NCBI GenBank assembly: GCA_035510575.1
Contig: DATKGV010000012.1
Coordinates: 7,596 to 71,595, forward strand
Origin: Minisyncoccota bacterium
GTDB taxonomy: Bacteria; Patescibacteriota; Minisyncoccia; Phycocordibacterales; UBA9973
Direction of reading: 5' to 3'
Length of the DNA stretch: 64,000 nt
Under the pieces are notes generated by a model. The model did not search any database, had not been told where the DNA came from, and saw only the letters and a list, made by a program, of their open reading frames with translations. Shown here piece by piece: positions 460 to 51,139 of the stretch. Every line of letters starts with the position of its first letter. The stretch's first letter is position 1. The position numbers and the translations under genes are program-made.

Positions 460-1641
460 TTATTTGCCACTTTTCTTTGCCTTGTCAGCTGTGGGTTTCT
501 TGGGACCGTCTTCTTTTGAGTCTCGAAGGTCTTTGTCGAACTTTTCCGCCGGTGTTAATTCCGCCGGAAGCTCGCCTTTTGCTTCGGCGACTTTCTGCTT
601 TCCGAATTCGACCACTCGGGCGAATCCATCCTCGAGAAGTTCCGGCGACATCATTTCGATGGCGGACCAGCTTCGAGTATTGAAGGCATACTCAAGCGCA
701 TCGGTCTTATTTTTCTTTTCCGCTGCGCTTGAGCTTGGCCAGAGCGATACGAGGTAGCCCTCAATTTCTTCTAGCCATCGCTTTTTACCCTGTACCCATT
801 TGCGCTTGTCTTCTTCGGTCTTGATCAAGTCGCCGGCATCCTGTTCGGCATAGCTGAACCGTGCCGCAATTGGATCTTTAATGATCGCTTCAATGGCAGG
901 AGCAAAGTCTTCGTAGGTCGGGTTTTTAAATACCGCACCATCGAGGAGATTGCCTCGCCCTTTGAGGACCACTGACTGACGCCAGACTTCGCGCTTCTTG
1001 CGTTGGATGAGTTCGTGGCGCTCCATGAGTACCAAGACATCAAATTCATATGCGGCGTTTTTCTCTGCCTGCATCTTCACTCCGGTCTTGGTGAACTCCT
1101 TGCGTCCGTCCTCGTCCACTTCCTGCTCCATGCGATCCGACACGCGGCCGGTTGCAAGGATATGCAGGGGTGATTGCACGAGTGGGATTGAAAAGTATTT
1201 ATTCCACTCGCTCTTGATCGACATCCAATCCTGTATCTGGAATGTCTGTCGATTAAGTTTCTTCTTATAAGCTTCTTGGAAGTCCATCCAGATGTGAGTG
1301 ATGCTGTCGATCACCATGATGTCGGCATATCCATCCGAACAGAGCTTCATTGCTTTTACCAAGTCGGCCAGCGAGTGTGTCTCGCGCACCATCGCTTCGA
1401 TTCCATTCTCTTTGAAAAGAGGAATCAGAAACTTTGATGCTTTCTCGGTATCAATAAGCACAATCGGCTTCTTACTGTTGATCTTCTTATGAAGACCAAT
1501 CGCTACTAATGCGGCAGTCCAACTTTTACCGGTTCCCGGTTCCCCTTCAAATGCCGCTTTGAAGAAAGGTTTTGTGTTCCCGATGGCGGTGAAGAATGTA
1601 TCTTCAGCTGTCGGAGAACTGCTTCGTTCTAGTGTTTGCAT
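460..1641 (-). CDS. P-loop ATPase, phage-associated AAA/RecA-like (AAA_24/Sak4-like).
   Basis: Walker A motif GEPGTGKS near the N-terminus and a Walker B-like MVIDSITH. GC of about 50% is atypical for the window. Confidence 0.5.
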   Translation of the reverse strand: MQTLERSSSPTAEDTFFTAIGNTKPFFKAAFEGEPGTGKSWTAALVAIGLHKKINSKKPIVLIDTEKASKFLIPLFKENGIEAMVRETHSLADLVKAMKLCSDGYADIMVIDSITHIWMDFQEAYKKKLNRQTFQIQDWMSIKSEWNKYFSIPLVQSPLHILATGRVSDRMEQEVDEDGRKEFTKTGVKMQAEKNAAYEFDVLVLMERHELIQRKKREVWRQSVVLKGRGNLLDGAVFKNPTYEDFAPAIEAIIKDPIAARFSYAEQDAGDLIKTEEDKRKWVQGKKRWLEEIEGYLVSLWPSSSAAEKKNKTDALEYAFNTRSWSAIEMMSPELLEDGFARVVEFGKQKVAEAKGELPAELTPAEKFDKDLRDSKEDGPKKPTADKAKKSGK

Positions 1642-27362: not shown

Positions 27363-29030
27363 TTAATAAACTTCCTGTTGATAACACTTCTCGCAATATA
27401 TGGTTTCTGGTCGATCTGGAGAGTAGGTTGTCTCAAATTCATTCAAACAATCTTTTTTCATACACTTCCTATGCCAAAGCTTGATGGGATTTCTTTTGGA
27501 CATTCTTTCTTTGTGACGACATTCAAAATCTTTGTGAGGTGAAGGCAGATGCATTCTTTTATAAAAATCTAATTCTGCTTGTATTAGTCTGAAGTTCTTG
27601 TTGCATTCTTCACAGACCAAAATTTCATTTGTTAGATTATCTACAACATCCTCTGGCATATTTGGTATTTCACCTTTTTTAATAGTTTCTTTTCCATAAG
27701 TACCAGTCGCTTTATCTTGCCATTTGTATCCTCTTTTCATTGTTTCATCTTTATTAAGAGGAAAGAAGTCTTGAATTAGTGATTCATTATAAGCAAAAGG
27801 CGCAACTTCTGGCGGAAAGAATTGTCCAAATATGTCTTCTTTTTTGAATTGTTCCTCAATTTTTTCTTTTAAATTAAAATATTCTTCTTTTGAATATTCC
27901 TTGTTCAAGATCATATAGTTACCTTTTCTAATAGAAATACATCCTATGGCATTTGATAAATGGTGGCAATTATCACAATACTCAACTTCATTACAATAAA
28001 ACACAAAAGCTGAATTTTTAAGTCTACTACCTTCAAGAGCACCCATAATATTGTATCCGAATTCAGGTTTATAATAATAATTATTACAATCCCAACTATC
28101 TATTGGTTTTTCGGTATCTTTCATATAAGAACAATTTTTTGAATCATAAGTATCAAAGAGCATTACTCCTTCATGACAATTATGAAGATAGTCTCCGGTT
28201 ACATTATGACATTTTGTTTGTGTGGAAAATTTTACGATAGTTTCCTTTTTTAATTTTTCAAATTCTTTTTTGGCGTTTTCTATACTTTCATAATCTTTTA
28301 AAATTTCAGATTTTTTCTTATCATATTCTTCTTTACTATATTTAATATTAAAAATTGAATTAGATATATTCATTCCATTTACGCAGAAAATACAATTATT
28401 TGAATTGTGAGTGTTGTAACAGAATAACAAATCACTAGACGACTGACATTTTTCACAAAACATGCATTTAAAACATTTACGACTATCTATGCATTCATAA
28501 CATAATTCTGATTCATGAAGAAAGGCGCAGTCTACGCACTGCTTGTCTCTTTGCATTAGTCTCCCATATAGACAATCTTCATTATAATCAGAAGCGAAAA
28601 TCAGATAGCAATCTTTATTTTCAGCTGATCCATTTGTATAATCGCTTCTAACATTTTGTATAGCCACAAGACCAAGCCTAGGTACTTCAAGTTGTAATTC
28701 TCTATATTGTTCAAAAAAAGTTTTAGAAAAATCATAATCTTTTGCAAAACTTTTTGGATCCCAATCATCACTCCACCAACATTTACTACAATATACTTTA
28801 TATGGAGATTCTGGATCATAAAGTGTAATCATATCTTTTTTACATAAATCGCACGGTCTTTTATATAAGATTCTTTCGTTTCGAAAGAGTAGACGTCTAG
28901 CCATTCGGCATTCTGGACAATAAAGCGGTGAAGCTGTTTTCATTTGTTCATAAAAAACAAGGTCTTCAGGTCTAATAATGAAGTCTTGTTTGCAAGTCCG
29001 GCACACTTTTTTTTCTGATTGGTATTTCAT
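27363..29030 (-). CDS. Cys-rich multi-zinc-ribbon protein (paralog A) of a family I do not recognise, embedded in the polyamine operon.
   Basis: 555 aa with at least 10 CxxC pairs. N- and C-terminal modules resemble each other (CxxC..F.I...D..FY....P..CP.CR..R...RN...LYKR.C). Identical C-terminal YSPDRPExIYCEKCYQQEVY to the paralog at 48195..49982. Confidence 0.7.
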   Translation of the reverse strand: MKYQSEKKVCRTCKQDFIIRPEDLVFYEQMKTASPLYCPECRMARRLLFRNERILYKRPCDLCKKDMITLYDPESPYKVYCSKCWWSDDWDPKSFAKDYDFSKTFFEQYRELQLEVPRLGLVAIQNVRSDYTNGSAENKDCYLIFASDYNEDCLYGRLMQRDKQCVDCAFLHESELCYECIDSRKCFKCMFCEKCQSSSDLLFCYNTHNSNNCIFCVNGMNISNSIFNIKYSKEEYDKKKSEILKDYESIENAKKEFEKLKKETIVKFSTQTKCHNVTGDYLHNCHEGVMLFDTYDSKNCSYMKDTEKPIDSWDCNNYYYKPEFGYNIMGALEGSRLKNSAFVFYCNEVEYCDNCHHLSNAIGCISIRKGNYMILNKEYSKEEYFNLKEKIEEQFKKEDIFGQFFPPEVAPFAYNESLIQDFFPLNKDETMKRGYKWQDKATGTYGKETIKKGEIPNMPEDVVDNLTNEILVCEECNKNFRLIQAELDFYKRMHLPSPHKDFECRHKERMSKRNPIKLWHRKCMKKDCLNEFETTYSPDRPETIYCEKCYQQEVY

Positions 29031-34238: not shown

Positions 34239-35342
34239 TTACAGCCCTTCCGCTTTCAATTTTTCCACTATGTCTCTCGCGCTGCGCGACAATTTTGCCG
34301 GCATCTTGATAATTATGCGAAGAATGATGTCGCCTCGGCCGCGACTGGACGGGACTCCTTTGCCTCTTACGCGCAGCATTTCGCCATTATTAATGCCTTC
34401 GGGTATTTTTACTTCTACCACATTGCCTTCAAGGGTCTTCAGATTGTAAGCCATGCCCATAAGAGCATCAGTAAGCTTAATCGGCAGATCCATGGTTAAG
34501 TTTAAACCATCACGCTTAAAAACGGGATGTGGTTCCACATTTATTTTAATATATAAGTCGCCCGATGTTCCATCTTGCACCGCTTCGCCGCTTCCGGTTA
34601 TGCGGACCATTTCGCCGTTATTAATTCCAGCCGGGATATTTACGCTTATCTCTTCATCTTTCTTATAGACGCCGCTGCCGTGGCATTGAGGACACTTCTC
34701 AGACGGAATTTTGCCTTTGCCTCGGCAGGTCTCGCATGTCTTGACGCTTGAAAAACTCCCAAGAATCGATTGCCTGATTTCGCTGACTTGGCCGCTGCCG
34801 TTGCAGGTCTTGCAAGTATTCATTTTTGATCCCGGTTTTGCGCCGGTGCCTTTGCAGACATCGCAGACAGATTGCTTATTGATAAATATCTTGCGAGTCG
34901 CGCCGAAAATCGAGTCCTTGAACGGCAGATTGATTTCAGTCGATATGTCTCTGCCTCGGCGGGCGCTTTGCTTGCTTCGTTTCATGCTGCCACCAAAAAA
35001 ATCGCCGAAAATATCGCCAAGATCTCCCATATCAAATTCTACGCCTCCATTCTGGCCGGTGAAATCAAAACCGCTGAAACCGCCTTGCTGATATCCTTGT
35101 TGCGCTCCGCCATAACCTCCTCCGTTAAAAGATGGACCTTCCGATCCGAATCTGTCGTATTGCGCGCGCTTTTGATCATCTGAAAGCGTCTGATAGGCCT
35201 CATTGACTTCCTTGAACTTCTTATCGTCTCCTTTATTCTTATCAGGATGATATTTATGCGCCATCTTATGAAAGGCCTTCTTGATTTCATCTTTCGAAGC
35301 AGTTTTATTTACACCAAGTGTATTGTAGTAATCTTTAGGCAT
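34239..35342 (-). CDS. dnaJ: Chaperone DnaJ.
   Basis: J domain with HPD (HKYHPDKN). Gly-rich linker. Four CxxCxGxG zinc-finger repeats. Confidence 0.92.
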
Positions 35343-35409: not shown

Positions 35410-37302
35410 TTATTTCTTCTCTGGATTTTCGTTTACTTCAGCGTCTTTGATTTCTTCGCCTTGAGCTTCTGGAGTTGCTGGTGCGCCTTCTTGCGGAGCG
35501 TTCTTGCTCATAGCTTCGCCAATTTTTGAAACTTCAGTTGTAAGAGCTTCGAGTGCAGTTTTAATTGCTTGCAAGTCAGTGCCGTCTTTGGCTTTCTTCA
35601 CATCGGCAATTTTGCCTTCTACGCTTGTCTTAAGTTCAGTCGGAATTTTATCGCCGTATTCTTTAAGCGATTTTTCAGATGAAAAGATTATCATTTCCGC
35701 CGTATTTTTCTCATCAACCAATTCCTTCTTCTTGGCATCCTCATCAGCATGAGCTTCGGCGTCATCTTTCATTTTCTTTATATCGGCATCAGTAAGACCA
35801 GATGAGGCCTCAATGCGGATTGATTGCTCCTTACCCGAAGCTTTATCTTTAGCTTTAACATTTAAGATTCCGTTGGCATCAACATCAAAAGTCACTTCTA
35901 TCTGCGGCATGCCTCGAGGGGCCGGCGGAATGCCATCTAGAATAAACCTGCCGAGTGACTTATTATCGGATGCCATCGGGCGCTCGCCTTGCGTAATATG
36001 AATTTCCACGGATGTCTGATTATCAGCGGCAGTTGAGAACACTTGGCTCTTTGAGTTTGGAATTGTCGTATTGCGTTCAATAAGCTTGGTAGCCACTCCG
36101 CCAAGCGTTTCAATGCCGAGCGATAGCGGTATGACGTCAAGAAGAAGGACATCTTTAACATCGCCTTGAAGGACTCCAGCTTGAACAGCCGCGCCGAGCG
36201 CCACAACTTCATCCGGATTAATGGAACGGTTCGGCTCTTTGCCGTTGAACAATTTCTTGACTTCTTCAACAATTTTAGGCATGCGCGTCTGTCCGCCAAC
36301 CATGATAATTTCATTAATTTCATTCATCTTGAACGGCGAGACCTCCATTGCGCGCTTTGAAATCTCTATCGATCTCGTAATATATTCTTCAGCTAGCGAC
36401 TCAAGCGTGGCGCGAGTCATTTTCATAAGAAGATGCTTCGGGCCCGATGCATCGGATGTGATAAACGGAATATTAATTTCTGTTTCCGGCGTGGTTGAAA
36501 GTTCAATCTTGGCTTTTTCAGCGGCTTCATCAAGGCGCTGAAGCGCCAGCGGATCTTTAGTGACATCTATGCCTGATTCTTTTTTATATTCAGCCGCAAT
36601 CCAATTGATTATTTTCTGATCTATATCACGGCCTCCCATGTGCGAGTCGCCGTCGGTGGATTTCACTTCTATAACATCGTCTGAGACCTCAAGCACGGAA
36701 ATATCAAATGTTCCGCCTCCGAAATCGTACACAACTATCTTTTCATTTTTCTTGGTATTAAATCCATAAGCAAGAGCGGCCGCTGTCGGCTCATTTATAA
36801 TTCTCTTTACATCGAGACCGGCAATTGCTCCGGCATCTTTGGTGGCTTTTCTTTGCGCGTCATTGAAATATGCTGGCACGGTAATAATAGCTTCAGTGAT
36901 TTTCTCGCCAAGCTTGGCTTCAACATCGGTCTTAATCTTTGAGAGAATCATGGCTGAAATCTCTTCCGGACGATACCATTTATTGCCGATATTCACTTCA
37001 ACTCCGCCGTCAGTTCCTTTCTGAATTTTGAACGGCGCCGTTTTTTGCGATTTCTGGATTTCCGGATCGTCAAACATGTGGCCCATGAATCGCTTGATGC
37101 CGTAAATAGTATTCTGCGGATTTGTCACCGCCTGGCGCTTGGCAAGCAAACCGACAAGGCGATCGCCATTCTTGGCAATTGCGACAATCGACGGAGTTGT
37201 TCGTCCGCCTTCAATATTTTCTATAATCTTCGGCTGCCCTCCTTCTATAATCGCAACCGCGCTATTTGTTGTACCCAAGTCAATACCAATTATTTTTGAC
37301 AT
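35410..37302 (-). CDS. dnaK: Chaperone DnaK (Hsp70).
   Basis: [21 protein letters not shown]. Start taken at MSKIIGID. An in-frame ATG 15 nt upstream is also possible. Confidence 0.92.
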
Positions 37303-37335
37303 ATATTTGTTTAGCATAGCAAATTATTTATTTCT

Positions 37336-37369
37336 GAATGGTCTGGTGAGAAAGTCCGAGGACCTGAAG
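37336..37369. repeat. Repeat family B, copy 1 (TGAATGGTCTGGTGAGAAAGTCCGAGGACCTGAA), in the dnaK 5' leader.
   Basis: A second copy at 50198-50231 is identical at 32 of 34 positions. Confidence 0.75.
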
Positions 37370-37423
37370 AAATATATAATTTGCGAAGCGTTTTTAATTA
37401 ATAATTTTTAATTTATAGAAGCA

Positions 37424-37451
37424 TTATATACTACTCTTTTATTTTTGACAA
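37424..37451 (-). promoter_or_regulatory. Sigma70-type promoter for dnaK: -35 TTGTCA, 16-bp spacer, -10 TATAAT.
   Basis: Minus-strand reading gives cTTGTCAaaaataaaagagtagtaTATAATg, about 100 nt upstream of the dnaK ATG. Confidence 0.6.
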
Positions 37452-37483
37452 GTATTTCGTGGTCGCGAGATACTTGTATATTG
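37445..37483 (+). promoter_or_regulatory. Divergent promoter for the regulator gene: -35 TTGACA with an extended -10 TGtTATATT. It overlaps the inverted repeat ACAAGTAT-N14-ATACTTGT (37448-37477).
   Basis: The -35 hexamers of both promoters share the near-palindromic TTGACAA. A second IR, ATGTCAA-N14-TTGACAT, lies at 37509-37536 in the leader. Confidence 0.45.
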
Positions 37484-37563
37484 GTAATATAATTGATAAT
37501 ATATGGGCATGTCAACCCCGTAGTAGATTTTGACATTTAAAAGGGGTTTTCATTATAAAATAT

Positions 37564-38109
37564 ATGTCAAAATTCACTACAGGGTCAAGTAAAAGCGACT
37601 ATTCCAAGAAAATATTGAAGATTTTGGCTGAAAAACCGGCAGTTTCTGTTATGGAACTTGTAGATAGGGCTTTAGGCGCTCAGATAGCGCCTAAAGCCCT
37701 ATCTACGTATGCCCTTACACGCTCGCTAAAAGGCCTTACAGAGGCAGGATTTGTTGAGAGCGTATCATCGGGTCAAAACGAATACGCGCGTCTTACAAAC
37801 GAAGGCAAGCGCAAGGCCTATAGCATAAAACTGGAATCCGGACTTGTTTCAACGAAATGGGACGGCTATTGGCGAATGATTATGCTTGATCTGCCAGAAG
37901 AACGCAAAAGCGAACGCGAGGCGCTTCGCTATCTGCTCAAAAAGGCCGGATTTGTCTGTGTTAAAAATTCTGTCTGGGTGTCTATGTACCCATATGAGAA
38001 TCTTTTCATAAATATTAAAAAAGATCTCGGTCTTACAACCGAGATGATGATACTCGTCACAGATAAAATTGACGAAGAAACAGAGAAAGAATTAATTAAG
38101 ATGTTTTAA
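37564..38109 (+). CDS. Small winged-helix regulator with a PaaX_C-like C-terminal domain.
   Basis: N-terminal wHTH ILKILAEKPAVSVMELV. C-terminal WDGYWRMIMLDLPEERKSEREALRYLLKKAGF...NSVWVS resembles the PaaX C-terminal domain. Located between grpE and dnaK. Confidence 0.45.
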   Translation: MSKFTTGSSKSDYSKKILKILAEKPAVSVMELVDRALGAQIAPKALSTYALTRSLKGLTEAGFVESVSSGQNEYARLTNEGKRKAYSIKLESGLVSTKWDGYWRMIMLDLPEERKSEREALRYLLKKAGFVCVKNSVWVSMYPYENLFINIKKDLGLTTEMMILVTDKIDEETEKELIKMF

Positions 38110-38722
38110 ATTCAAATATAGTCACTCTGGCCGGGCGAATGATTCTGACTTGCCCCGTATTTGCGGGGTCGCCTATCTTGTATCCGGCTTGGATTACTTT
38201 TTCTATGATATGATCTTTACTTTGATCGTCAGTTAAAACGCTTTCAATGGACTGATGAAGATTAGGATCAAAAGGCACATTTACTTTATCGATTTTCTCA
38301 ACGCCGGAATTGGATAAGCTTGTCATAAACTGCTGGTAAATGTATTCAATGCCTGTCCGCCAATTTTTATCAACGTTTTCCCAGACGTCTTTGTTGGCAA
38401 ATGCCATATCAAAGCTATCAAGCGCCGGAAGAAGATTTTCTATTATTCTCTCTTTGGCATGTATTGAGACGCTCTTGCTGATTTGATCCATTTCTTTCTG
38501 TAGATTGATATAATCGGCTTTGGCTCTCTGCCAGCCGGTCAGATATTCCTCTTTTTCAGCGCGAGCTTTCTTCAAATCCTCCCTTAATTTCTTGACAATA
38601 TCTTTTGTCGGCAATTCATCGCCGTCTTCAGTGCTGTCAACAAAAGTCACATCTTGGAAATTTTCTTCAGGTTCTTGTTTTTTTATTTCTTCTTCATTAT
38701 CCATATAAATTATCATAAACAA
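38096..38722 (-). CDS. grpE: Nucleotide exchange factor GrpE.
   Basis: Acidic N-terminus, coiled coil, GrpE C-terminal beta domain. Confidence 0.85.
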   Translation of the reverse strand: MFMIIYMDNEEEIKKQEPEENFQDVTFVDSTEDGDELPTKDIVKKLREDLKKARAEKEEYLTGWQRAKADYINLQKEMDQISKSVSIHAKERIIENLLPALDSFDMAFANKDVWENVDKNWRTGIEYIYQQFMTSLSNSGVEKIDKVNVPFDPNLHQSIESVLTDDQSKDHIIEKVIQAGYKIGDPANTGQVRIIRPARVTIFEFKTS

Positions 38723-48194: not shown

Positions 48195-49982
48195 TCAATA
48201 AACCTCTTGCTGGTAACATTTCTCGCAGTATATAATCTCTGGTCGGTCTGGTGAATATGATGTTTCAAACTCTATGTCACAGTTATTATTTCCGTGAAAA
48301 TGACTTGTCTTGTCACACATACACTTCCTATGCCAGAGTTTCATAGGATTACGCATTTTTAATCTTTCTCTATGACGACAAAAGAAACATAGATGTGGCA
48401 ATGGCACTTTTAATTTTTTATACAAATTTAATTCATCTTCTATTACTTTAAAGGCCTTCCGGCAATAAATATTATTTTCATTTACATTTTCGCATTCTAT
48501 AATTTCTCTAATTATTTCATCAGAAACGTCATTTAGTTTATCCGGCAAATCTTTTGCTTTTATAGTTGCTTTATATTCATTTACTTGCCTCTCTCGCCAT
48601 TTATAACCTTCTTTTAATATCTTCTCTTTTGTTTTAGGAAAATAATCTTGAGCAACTGTTTCATTGTAGGCAAATGGTGAAAGTTCTACTGGAAAAAATT
48701 CTCCATATTTATAAATAATCTTATTTTTATCAACATAAGGAATATTCATCATTTGCTGTTTTATTTTTGAAACGAGTTTTTCATATTCATCTTTTGAATA
48801 TTGTTTATTTAAAATACAATATTTTTTATTTCTTAAGCCAAGACAGCCAAATAGGTTAGAACAGCCATAACAATTAAAGCAATATTCTATTTCATTTGAA
48901 CTATATACAACACTAGTAAAAAGATTGCGGTAATTTCCTATTCCAGTGTCAAAAATTTCATAAGTCAATTCTGCTAATCCTATTCCAGGACCAGAATCAT
49001 AACCATCTTTTACATCTTTTTCTAGCCAATGAGAATATTTACAATCTTCTATATTGCCCTTTGCATCAAAACAAAATTTGCAATTTTTTGTTCCCTCAAG
49101 ATTATCGCCGATAGAATTAACTGTTTTTATATGGATAGCAAAGCGATGTAATGACTTTAAATACAATTCTTTGAAATTTTTTTTGAGCTCTAAAATTATT
49201 TTATAATCTGTTAAATCCAATTCAGCCAGACGATGATTATACTCTTCTTTAGACAGTTGCTTATTCCACATACAATAGGACTTGCTTCGAAGATTACTGC
49301 AACCAAAACAATTTACACAGCCATGACAATCATATAAAAAATAAGAGTCGACACAATTTTTGCAGTTTAAAGAATATAAAAGATGGTAACAATCTGAACA
49401 AATAACATCATCATAACAAAGTTCTGCATCATTAACTACATAAAGATCGGAAGAATCTTTAATTCTTGAAATCCGATTCGAATAAAAAGTTTGTTCAATT
49501 TGCCAAGAACCAGATGACATGTAACTGTTTCTACTTTCCTCAGCAATATTACAATAATCACTATTCGTAGCATTGCTATTTGAAAGAATTTGGAGGGGAA
49601 ATTGATTCATTAGATTTTTCCATTGCTTAAAAAATGGTTCAGAAAAATCATAATCACGCCCATAAAACATTGGGTCCCATTTATCTCCCCACCAATATTT
49701 TATATCATAAACTATGAGATTTTCATCTGGAGGATAAAGAGAAATTAAAGTTTCATTATGATCGGGAGCATTGCATTTCCTCTTAAAAAGAGACATCTCA
49801 TTTCGCCAGCATAATCTTCTTATCGTTCTGCATTCCGGACAAAAAGTTGGTGGAGGAACTTTAATTTTCTCATAAAAAGAAAAGTCGTCCGGCTCAATAA
49901 TAAAGTTTTGCTTACAGTTTTGGCATATTCTAGTTTCTGAATTCATATTCAGAATTATGCCACAATACCTCCGCCTAGGCAA
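48195..49982 (-). CDS. Cys-rich multi-zinc-ribbon protein (paralog B).
   Basis: 595 aa. Same architecture and identical C-terminal motif as 27363..29030. Overlaps the mnmA 3' end by 28 nt. Confidence 0.7.
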   Translation of the reverse strand: MPRRRYCGIILNMNSETRICQNCKQNFIIEPDDFSFYEKIKVPPPTFCPECRTIRRLCWRNEMSLFKRKCNAPDHNETLISLYPPDENLIVYDIKYWWGDKWDPMFYGRDYDFSEPFFKQWKNLMNQFPLQILSNSNATNSDYCNIAEESRNSYMSSGSWQIEQTFYSNRISRIKDSSDLYVVNDAELCYDDVICSDCYHLLYSLNCKNCVDSYFLYDCHGCVNCFGCSNLRSKSYCMWNKQLSKEEYNHRLAELDLTDYKIILELKKNFKELYLKSLHRFAIHIKTVNSIGDNLEGTKNCKFCFDAKGNIEDCKYSHWLEKDVKDGYDSGPGIGLAELTYEIFDTGIGNYRNLFTSVVYSSNEIEYCFNCYGCSNLFGCLGLRNKKYCILNKQYSKDEYEKLVSKIKQQMMNIPYVDKNKIIYKYGEFFPVELSPFAYNETVAQDYFPKTKEKILKEGYKWRERQVNEYKATIKAKDLPDKLNDVSDEIIREIIECENVNENNIYCRKAFKVIEDELNLYKKLKVPLPHLCFFCRHRERLKMRNPMKLWHRKCMCDKTSHFHGNNNCDIEFETSYSPDRPEIIYCEKCYQQEVY

Positions 49983-51139
49983 ATATCTTTGTCATATACT
50001 ACAATTGATTGACCAGAATCAACTAAAACATCATTATCAAAGGTTACTCTAGCTTCTTTATCCGAAATAATTTTTATATGACAGTTTAGTAATTCTCCAT
50101 GATAGCGAATTTGCGCAGTATATATTTTATTTTTGTCCGGAAGCTCATTTATCCAATTTGTATTATTAATAATTAATGAGCTAAAAAATTCTTTTTTTGA
50201 ATGGTCTGGTGAGTTAGTCCGAGGACCTGAAAAAAATGAATTATTTGGCGAATTTAAAACTGTAATTGTATTTTCTTTTAAATTTTTTGAAACAACATAA
50301 AGAGGCCTATTTTCGGAAGATTTTTCAGTAATCGTAAATCCATGCCTTTCGCCTAAAGTGAAAAATATTGCTCCATCATGAGTGCCTATAACTTCCTCAT
50401 TTTCATTCAGAACATTTCCCTTTTTTGATTCTATATAATGCTTTAGAAAATCTTTCATATCAAGTGGCCCTAAAAAGCAAACACCTTGACTATCTTTTTT
50501 AACTGCCGTAGGAAGCTTATATTTCTTTGCAAGTTTACGAACTTCTGTTTTCTTTAAATGTCCAATTGGGAAAAGTATATGTTCTAAATCTTTCTGAGTA
50601 AGAGTCCACAAAAAATAACTTTGATCTTTTGATGAATCAGGACTTTGTTTTAAAAAGTATTTTTCCTCCCCTGCTAAGGGGAGGTGGTCTTTAGACCGGA
50701 GGGGTGCACCCCCTCGTCTTTCAGACACTCCCCCTTCGCAGGGGGAGAAAAAAACTTTAGCATAATGTCCAGTTGCAATAAAATCTGCTCCATGACTTTT
50801 TGCAAAATTCCAAAATACACCAAACTTCACTTCGCGATTGCACATGACATCTGGATTGGGAGTATGGCCCTTTTTATATTCTTCTATCATATAGAGAGCC
50901 ACATTCTTCTTATATTCTTCCTCCGCATTACACTCCAAAAACGGAATGTTTAAATGGGCGCAAACTTTCATGGCGTCGCGCCGTTCATTTCGCCAAGAGC
51001 ATTCTATGAAGTCCGGCGTCCATGTGCGTATAAAAACTCCGACGACATTATAGCCTTGGTCTTTTAAAAGCGCGGCGCTGACTGAAGAATCTACGCCTCC
51101 GGAAACGCCGACAAACACTGTTTTATTATTTTTATTCAT
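49955..51139 (-). CDS. mnmA: tRNA-specific 2-thiouridylase MnmA carrying two in-frame repeat-derived inserts.
   Basis: PP-loop VGVSGGVDSSV. GHYA...DQSYFL. The insert SPCEGGVSERRGGAPLRSKDHLPLAGEE is encoded by a GC hairpin triplet. The insert FFSGPRTNSPDHSKKEFF is encoded by repeat B. Confidence 0.85.
   Translation of the reverse strand: MNKNNKTVFVGVSGGVDSSVSAALLKDQGYNVVGVFIRTWTPDFIECSWRNERRDAMKVCAHLNIPFLECNAEEEYKKNVALYMIEEYKKGHTPNPDVMCNREVKFGVFWNFAKSHGADFIATGHYAKVFFSPCEGGVSERRGGAPLRSKDHLPLAGEEKYFLKQSPDSSKDQSYFLWTLTQKDLEHILFPIGHLKKTEVRKLAKKYKLPTAVKKDSQGVCFLGPLDMKDFLKHYIESKKGNVLNENEEVIGTHDGAIFFTLGERHGFTITEKSSENRPLYVVSKNLKENTITVLNSPNNSFFSGPRTNSPDHSKKEFFSSLIINNTNWINELPDKNKIYTAQIRYHGELLNCHIKIISDKEARVTFDNDVLVDSGQSIVVYDKDICLGGGIVA
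50198..50231. repeat. Repeat family B, copy 2, in frame in mnmA.
   Basis: TGAATGGTCTGGTGAGTTAGTCCGAGGACCTGAA, compared with copy 1 at 37336-37369. Confidence 0.75.
50664..50747. repeat. Array of three GC-rich hairpins in frame in mnmA.
   Basis: CCTCCCC-TGCTAA-GGGGAGG. GAGGGG-TGCA-CCCCCTC. CTCCCCC-TTCGCA-GGGGGAG. Confidence 0.75.

Follow-up and report, generated by a model that had tools for sequence, protein, structure and literature searches.

A 181-amino-acid (aa) protein encoded beside the Hsp70 gene dnaK in a Minisyncoccota bacterium probably represses transcription of the Hsp70 operon and of its own gene; this operon comprises dnaK-dnaJ in this genome and grpE-dnaK-dnaJ in deeper relatives. 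The gene, termed REG (regulator gene) here, lies in a stretch of 64,000 nucleotides (nt) of contig DATKGV010000012.1, referred to as the window, and its product consists of a winged helix followed by a Cas2-like domain known from the repressor PaaX. A first-pass annotation had described a 181-aa winged-helix open reading frame between grpE and dnaK, divergent from dnaK, and had put it forward as a candidate for non-canonical control of chaperone or heat-shock genes, by way of inverted repeats that lie over the two divergent promoters. The reading frame is confirmed at 37564-38109 (plus strand), and its candidacy is supported by synteny and by a palindrome that is conserved at the related loci. 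We infer that REG binds this palindrome and that it probably represents a type of chaperone-gene repressor not described before. Full-text literature searches returned no account of this regulator, nor of chaperone-gene control in Patescibacteria (the candidate phyla radiation, CPR).

The association between REG and Hsp70 genes is conserved over long evolutionary distances. Relatives were scanned with one genome per species and the best 80 loci were kept for comparison. A REG relative is encoded in 377 species genomes, and the closest relatives of the window are metagenome-assembled genomes labelled Nomurabacteria or Paceibacterota. In the window, dnaK (35410-37317, minus strand; Pfam HSP70, E 4e-243) likely has its true start at the ATG at 37302, and the region between it and REG spans 37318-37563. 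Conservation of REG next to dnaK in relatives had been named in advance as a check, and it holds: among the best 80 loci, 76 have a contig that reaches the dnaK N-terminus, and in every one of these dnaK is upstream of REG and divergent from it (tblastn). The gap is shorter than 400 bp in most loci, extra genes occur between the pair in some, and grpE lies 0 to 6 kb downstream of REG. Distant orthologues with 27-41% identity also have REG divergent from grpE-dnaK-dnaJ or dnaK in 9/9 informative contigs (P0135, P0127, P0126, P0141, P0160, P0271, P0369, P0318 and P0310), where the usual other flank is rpsI-rplM-rplQ-rpoA. Relative to the window proteins, identity averages 63.9% for REG compared to 81.1% for DnaK, 62.5% for DnaJ, 61.6% for S9, 52.2% for L13 and 50.5% for GrpE. 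REG is under strong constraint and is conserved like DnaJ and ribosomal protein S9.

The REG-dnaK intergenic region contains a 34-bp palindromic candidate operator, TGACAAGTATTTCGTG-GT-CGCGAGATACTTGTAT, at 37446-37479, with its centre between 37462 and 37463. The first of two inverted repeats noticed earlier, ACAAGTAT (37448-37455)-N14-ATACTTGT (37470-37477), is present and widens to this palindrome; the inverted repeat at the candidate operator has 12-nt arms and a 6-nt gap, and the candidate half-site is ACAAGTATTTCG, with ~19 bp between the centres of its two copies. The palindrome occurs in 76/76 intergenic regions with consensus aCAAGTaTTTCGtGacCgCgAAATaCTTGT. A weight matrix derived from 76 related sites has a single match in the window, with a score of 44.9 (all else scores below 8 and the best of 20 shuffles reaches 11.9). 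Over the 80 related loci (821 kb) it matches exactly once per locus, and each time the site is immediately upstream of REG. Intergenic regions were read for eight of the nine distant orthologues (P0126 itself was read and its second copy was left out), and seven of these eight keep the frame TTGACAAGTA-N-TACTTGTCAA around a clade-specific centre; examples with differing centres are CGCGTACGCG, CACTATATTG, TTACGACCGTA and CACGACCGTG. At L118, a distant orthologue locus, the right half of the operator is intact and the left half is rearranged. A metagenome scan for both half-sites with any centre found 24 stretches. Fourteen have the centre CGYGRYCRCG or a one-base variant of it and all 14 adjoin a REG homologue; dnaK is on the contig in 11 of these, and the remaining three contigs are too short. 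The other ten stretches have different centres and different contexts. Neither the matrix scan of the window and the 80 loci nor the metagenome half-site scan revealed further regulon members. As a separate observation, a perfect palindrome with the operator half-sites and another centre, TTAGTCAAGTATTTCACGATCGTGAAATACTTGACTAA, occurs at L100 5926-5953, L102 1429-1456, L113 3819-3846 and L104 1079-1106. In L100 and L102 it separates trpS from the gene for a SpoU-like methylase, and in L104 it is found just 3' of the gene for a 197-aa paralogue of REG; a paralogous regulator may use it as its operator.

The palindrome could have been kept for reasons that do not involve REG, as symmetric -35 or upstream elements of a bidirectional promoter or as the site of another factor, with REG an unrelated neighbour. 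Its outer arms (TTGACA / TGTCAA) are indeed -35-like on both strands, and REG binding is itself inferred. However, the G+C-rich centre CGYGRYCRCG is conserved within an A+T-rich spacer (window G+C is 37%) and is no promoter element, and this centre varies with REG clade while the frame is kept. The site is always directly upstream of REG, as expected of an autoregulatory operator, and REG remains paired with Hsp70 genes even where its identity has dropped to 27%. We regard a chance neighbourhood as unlikely and prefer an operator that is bound by REG.

Two sigma-70-type promoters are predicted to face away from the palindrome. The dnaK promoter (37423-37451, minus strand) has a -35 box TTGTCA (37451-37446) and a -10 box TATAAT (37428-37423), which together match the consensus at 11/12 positions, with a predicted transcription start near 37416 (minus strand). 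It had been given as TTGTCA-16-TATAAT; the near-consensus boxes stand, but the spacer is 17 nt rather than 16. The -10 is an exact TATAAT in 40/76 loci and has at least five of six bases in 57/76. The REG promoter (37474-37502, plus strand) is predicted from the sequence and its relatives to have a -35 box TTGTAT (37474-37479) separated by 17 nt from an extended -10, TGaTAATAT (37494-37502). Its basis is a block, GATAATATAT-N4-5-ATGTCAA, that relatives share. The -35 in relatives is mostly TTGTCA; the window version was missed by the promoter-scan threshold because TTGTAT matches TTGACA at 3/6 positions. The plus-strand promoter proposed originally, TTGACA with an extended -10, is not borne out, and relatives support TTGTAT/TTGTCA-17-TAATAT instead. 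The TTGACA at 37445-37450 was rejected as the REG -35 box; at legal spacing its sole -10 is a poor GATACT (18-nt spacer). REG transcription is predicted to start at the A of the ATG at 37509, seven bases past the -10. Both -35 hexamers fall within the palindrome outer arms, that of dnaK in the left and that of REG in the right, and the palindrome centre is ~46.5 bp upstream of each predicted transcription start.

This geometry suggests a mechanism in which the two back-to-back promoters would fire outward from the palindrome and REG would switch off both. A REG homodimer, joined by its Cas2-like PaaX_M domain as in PaaX, would place its two winged helices on the ACAAGTATTTCG half-sites, and bound REG would occlude both -35 boxes and block RNA polymerase at the dnaK-dnaJ and REG promoters. 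Alternatively, REG bound at the palindrome might stimulate one promoter or both, in a class II-like manner from a position that overlaps the -35. The site centre at about -46.5 from both predicted starts overlaps the -35 region, which is a position used by some activators, and the REG -35 in the window (TTGTAT) is weak. Repression is nevertheless favoured because both promoters are near consensus, with a dnaK promoter that needs no aid at 11/12 here and an exact TATAAT in more than half of the loci, and because PaaX represses in competition with RNA polymerase and most small autoregulated divergent winged helix-turn-helix (wHTH) proteins are repressors too (PMC9493321). It is also favoured because the operator core lies inside the dnaK core promoter in short-spacer relatives (L026 and L034; spacers in such relatives are 72 nt). 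We judge activation to be quite improbable. Release by phenylacetyl-CoA is improbable because REG is without the PaaX C-terminal ligand-binding domain, and the preferred signal would be proteotoxic stress. Stress could act through chaperone titration, with DnaK/DnaJ keeping REG competent for DNA binding, or through intrinsic heat lability of the REG dimer; the single-operon regulon and the extreme conservation of the Cas2-like domain would make DnaK/DnaJ feedback or thermolability most plausible.

The protein architecture of REG is consistent with a compact DNA-binding regulator. The C-terminal part had been read as a PaaX_C-like domain, but it is PaaX_M (PF20803, "PaaX central Cas2-like domain"), which covers aa 97-177 (37852-38094, plus strand) with E 9e-21 and 74.2 bits against a cutoff of 24 and spans profile positions 2-82 of 83; it is the presumed dimerisation module. 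No Pfam match to PaaX_C was found in REG, which stops four residues past PaaX_M, and Pfam likewise gave no match to HrcA or MerR domains. The DNA-binding domain is a wHTH at aa 13-77 (37600-37794, plus strand), identified from secondary structure, Pfam and fold matches, although the Pfam wHTH matches at the N-terminus are weak. In an AlphaFold model built from a 27-sequence alignment (mean predicted local distance difference test score, pLDDT, 77), the winged helix consists of helices at 13-23, 29-37 and 44-60 and strands at 64-69 and 72-77, with aa 44-60 likely to be the recognition helix. Beyond it are a linker helix (79-91), a strand-helix-strand-strand-helix-strand domain (103-166) and a final helix, and one short helix is all that follows the Cas2-like fold. 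Residues Y49, R53 and K56 are invariant among relatives, and the Cas2-like half is almost invariant, with invariant columns from W99 to D154. In Foldseek searches of the PDB over the whole REG length, E. coli PaaX (8a39, E 1.4e-6), its Jannaschia homologue (3l09) and Rv0674 (3kfw) rank first or close to it, with probability 1.0; MarR and ArsR winged helices come next. The alignment with the PaaX fold covers ~179 columns; TM-scores against solved PaaX structures are low (~0.35) because the relative domain orientation is uncertain in the REG model. Searching PDB sequences with the family profile yielded marginal wHTH matches and did not retrieve PaaX; it took fold comparison to make that link. 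Because REG has the DNA-binding and dimerisation parts of PaaX without its C-terminal domain, which binds the inducer phenylacetyl-CoA in PaaX (PMC9493321), it can be described as a "mini-PaaX".

A Cas2-like domain could also belong to an active nuclease, with REG part of a defence or toxin-type module and no transcription factor. REG has weak similarity to the Cas2 model TIGR01573 (16.4 bits, E 0.008, below the cutoff of 24.5). It also has an invariant Asp, D109, at the end of strand 1, as Cas2 does. Such a role is very improbable: no cas or partner gene is among the conserved neighbours (no explicit CRISPR-array search was made), for which the constant members are Hsp70 genes, the middle region is described as a dimerisation motif in 3L09, the PaaX homologue from Jannaschia (PMC9493321), and the N-terminal wHTH and autoregulatory palindrome fit a DNA-binding regulator. 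Least probable of all is that REG is a standard PaaX orthologue with control over the catabolism of aromatics (phenylacetate), for which the 'PaaX' name on many JGI homologues, the Pfam PaaX_M match and PaaX as best PDB fold match can be cited, but against which stand a score of 36.7 bits with the PaaX equivalog model TIGR02277 (aa 54-154 covered; cutoff 264.55), the missing PaaX_C domain, an operator unlike TGATTC-N27-GAATCA, and the absence of paa genes from any neighbourhood, with dnaK, dnaJ, grpE and ribosomal genes as neighbours in all loci.

REG belongs to a large group of similar proteins. An initial search with REG gave 2080 homologues, which are annotated publicly as "hypothetical protein" or "PaaX"; the label "PaaX, phenylacetic acid degradation repressor" that many of them carry is misleading. 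An exhaustive profile search found 3513 clusters at 50% identity (E up to 1e-3), and 22 clusters with E up to 1e-30, so that REG and its orthologues form a tight group within a large radiation of ~185-aa two-domain proteins. Two further proteins of this kind can be noted. L120, from a distant relative, encodes a second PaaX_M protein (555-1118, minus strand; 187 aa) with a hydrophobic N-terminal segment, directly after dnaJ and in the same direction, in an arrangement reminiscent of actinobacterial dnaK operons, which end in hspR. P0157 (L090 / L091), a mini-PaaX paralogue at greater distance, likewise has a hydrophobic segment at its N-terminus, and directly upstream of its gene a palindrome, TTTTGCAAT-N20-ATTGCAAAA, lies over a -35-like box. 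Autoregulation via promoter-overlapping palindromes may be general to the ~185-aa mini-PaaX family.

Leaders on both sides of the operator appear to have been altered by small insertions. The REG mRNA is probably leaderless because the ancestral start codon follows the predicted -10 by ~7 nt: counted from the palindrome centre, the sequence ATGTCAA begins at +46 or +47 in 49/76 loci. In the window, this ancestral start (37509-37523, plus strand) is reduced to a 4-codon stub (MSTP-stop, TAG), and a 70-nt hairpin element is inserted directly after ATGTCAA (37516-37585, plus strand). Its 25-nt arms are 84% complementary, its RNA fold has an energy of -22.8 kcal/mol (z -3.96), and TCAA flanks it on both sides. 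The present REG start codon (37564) is a new in-frame start within the 3' arm of the hairpin, buried in the 25-bp stem. Related hairpins occur at the same spot in L061, L006, L005 and L076, and hairpin elements here have the form CCCCGTAGTAG...CACTACAGGG or CCCCGTCGCTCG/CGAGCGACGGGG. In L017, L021, L067 and L075 the operator and REG are separated by an additional 0.5 to 1.2 kb, in which opposite-strand genes are identifiable for L017, L021 and L075. The site right after ATGTCAA appears to be an insertion hot spot. A search of 37250-37700 against Rfam gave spurious miRNA-like matches on the hairpin and nothing else. The second repeat in the first-pass annotation, ATGTCAA (37509-37515)-N14-TTGACAT (37530-37536), is present; it is not a conserved operator, because it pairs the conserved start with the inserted hairpin. 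Its arms are 7 nt, there are 20 such inverted pairs in the 283-nt A+T-rich spacer, and it is missing from most relatives; as an operator it was rejected, being unconserved and having a right arm that belongs to the window-specific hairpin insertion.

The dnaK 5' leader contains a palindromic element of its own (37319-37384, minus strand; fold z -4.93), with core TTCAGGTCCTCGGACTnnCTCACCAGACCATTCA, terminal inverted repeats CAAATTAT / ATAATTTG and no Rfam match. L020 and L119 also carry it in their dnaK leaders and L002 has it at another place, and a second copy in the window (~50170-50250, minus strand) lies in frame inside a mnmA-like open reading frame (49955-51139), where it adds ..FFSGPRTNSPDHSKKEFF... 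This element looks like a small mobile repeat, resembling a miniature inverted-repeat transposable element or a Rickettsia-palindromic-element-like insert, and not a dedicated riboregulator. The idea of an RNA thermometer in the dnaK leader was dropped because the element is repeated and also lies inside a coding region.

Canonical heat-shock control elements are missing from the neighbourhoods that were searched. The first-pass annotation had reported no CIRCE or HAIR element, and this is upheld: no CIRCE was found in the window at up to three mismatches, and HAIR-like matches there are at chance level (4 found vs 1.9 expected), with none near dnaK. Across the window and 117 loci (1.12 Mb), there are two CIRCE-like matches (L040 and L065), each with exactly 4 of 18 mismatches and far from the REG-dnaK intergenic region. 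A tblastn search of these 1.12 Mb of neighbourhoods for hrcA-like sequence, using a Bacillus subtilis HrcA probe that may contain errors, gave no match below E = 1.

Several points weigh against a repressor role for REG. Promoters and transcription starts are predictions, and palindrome conservation could be partly promoter conservation because the outer arms coincide with the -35 boxes. Translation of REG in the window is unusual, with a start codon in a hairpin and no good Shine-Dalgarno sequence, and genes have been inserted between the operator and REG in some relatives. The apparent regulon is a single operon, as judged from the window, the 80 loci and the metagenome scan, and hrcA or other stress regulators may be present elsewhere in the genome. 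The repressor reading is still the one that best fits the conserved gene pair and palindrome. A more ambitious version, which we offer tentatively and with considerable doubt, is that the main proteostasis regulator in a large part of Patescibacteria senses and dimerises through a recruited Cas2-fold domain, with REG a DnaK/DnaJ-titrated or heat-labile repressor that would provide one-operon Hsp70 feedback from a leaderless mRNA.

Neighbouring genes indicate how the locus may have been rearranged. In the window, dnaJ (34239-35342, minus strand; Pfam DnaJ, DnaJ_C and DnaJ_CXXCXGXG) follows dnaK by 67 nt and is presumably co-transcribed with it. REG lies between dnaK and grpE (38096-38722, minus strand; Pfam GrpE, E 1e-33), divergent from the former and convergent with the latter, with a 14-nt overlap. 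A conserved minus-strand run, infA-rpmJ-rpsM-rpsK-rpsD-rpoA-rplQ-rplM-rpsI, precedes grpE, and rpsI and grpE are 38 nt apart. The matrix scan of the 64-kb window gave no second match, and so no operator upstream of grpE. Because of this and of the short distance to rpsI, grpE may be, and probably is, transcribed together with the ribosomal-protein/rpoA operon in the clade of the window. From the layout of the distant orthologues and their kept operator frame, the ancestral arrangement seems to have been REG divergent from grpE-dnaK-dnaJ, and grpE seems to have moved to the other side of REG, without an operator, in the clade of the window. A terminator-like hairpin with a T-run (38024-38045, minus strand) occurs ~50 nt past the grpE stop codon; it overlaps the REG coding sequence on the opposite strand, which there encodes an invariant DLGLTTEM motif. 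Elsewhere in the window, a pair of paralogous proteins of 555 to 595 aa with many Cys-X2-Cys motifs is encoded at 27363-29030 and 48195-49982 (minus strand), with N-termini ..CRTCKQDFIIRPEDLVFYE.. and ..CQNCKQNFIIEPDDFSFYE...

A large part of bacterial diversity falls within the Patescibacteria, which encode very few transcription factors and are hardly amenable to experiment. The locus is a concrete candidate regulator-operator pair for in vitro study that is present in at least 377 species genomes. If the proposed role is correct, REG would represent a further bacterial heat-shock repressor family, independent of HrcA, HspR, CtsR and RheA, and a new role for the Cas2-like fold. It would also be part of a ~185-aa mini-PaaX radiation that is maybe a major transcription-factor family of reduced genomes, given its 3513 clusters.

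Comparison with known systems helps to place REG. PaaX of E. coli and its homologue (8a39 and 3l09) are the best structural match and, like REG, have an N-terminal winged helix followed by Cas2-like PaaX_M. PaaX is an autoregulated repressor that competes with RNA polymerase at its promoters (PMC9493321), which is also the role proposed for REG. The PaaX chain in 8a39 has 305 aa compared to 181 aa for REG, which is without the C-terminal helical domain. The PaaX operator is TGATTC-N27-GAATCA (PMC9493321), whereas that of REG is a contiguous 34-bp palindrome, and linkage is to paa genes for the former and to Hsp70 genes for the latter. A TTCGYG sequence may be common to the E. coli PaaX box and the REG operator. 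The HrcA/CIRCE system resembles the proposed REG system in its position beside grpE-dnaK-dnaJ, its palindromic operator over a sigma-70-type promoter and its negative chaperone control. In the HrcA model, the chaperone GroEL maintains repressor activity. HrcA and REG belong to unrelated protein families, the REG operator is unlike CIRCE (TTAGCACTC-N9-GAGTGCTAA), HrcA is encoded by the first gene of the operon whereas REG is divergent, and no groESL site was seen for the REG operator in the scanned loci. The HspR/HAIR system is similar to that proposed for REG in having a repressor mainly for the dnaK operon that is encoded within or beside it. DnaK is the co-repressor in the HspR system, which provides direct feedback, and a direct DnaK feedback of this type is favoured for REG. 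HspR differs as a MerR family protein encoded by the last gene of the dnaK operon, and its HAIR element (CTTGAGT-N7-ACTCAAG) is not above chance in the REG window. RheA of Streptomyces albus is a small autoregulated repressor divergent from a single heat-shock target, hsp18, with intergenic inverted repeats, and is an intrinsic thermosensor. REG is likewise a small divergent regulator with inverted repeats in a shared intergenic region and a single apparent target, but its protein family, operator and target (Hsp70 instead of a small Hsp) are different and thermosensing by REG is hypothetical. Judged from its sequence context, REG would have a role like those of HrcA, HspR and RheA but in another protein family, as a truncated PaaX relative with a different operator geometry and different targets.

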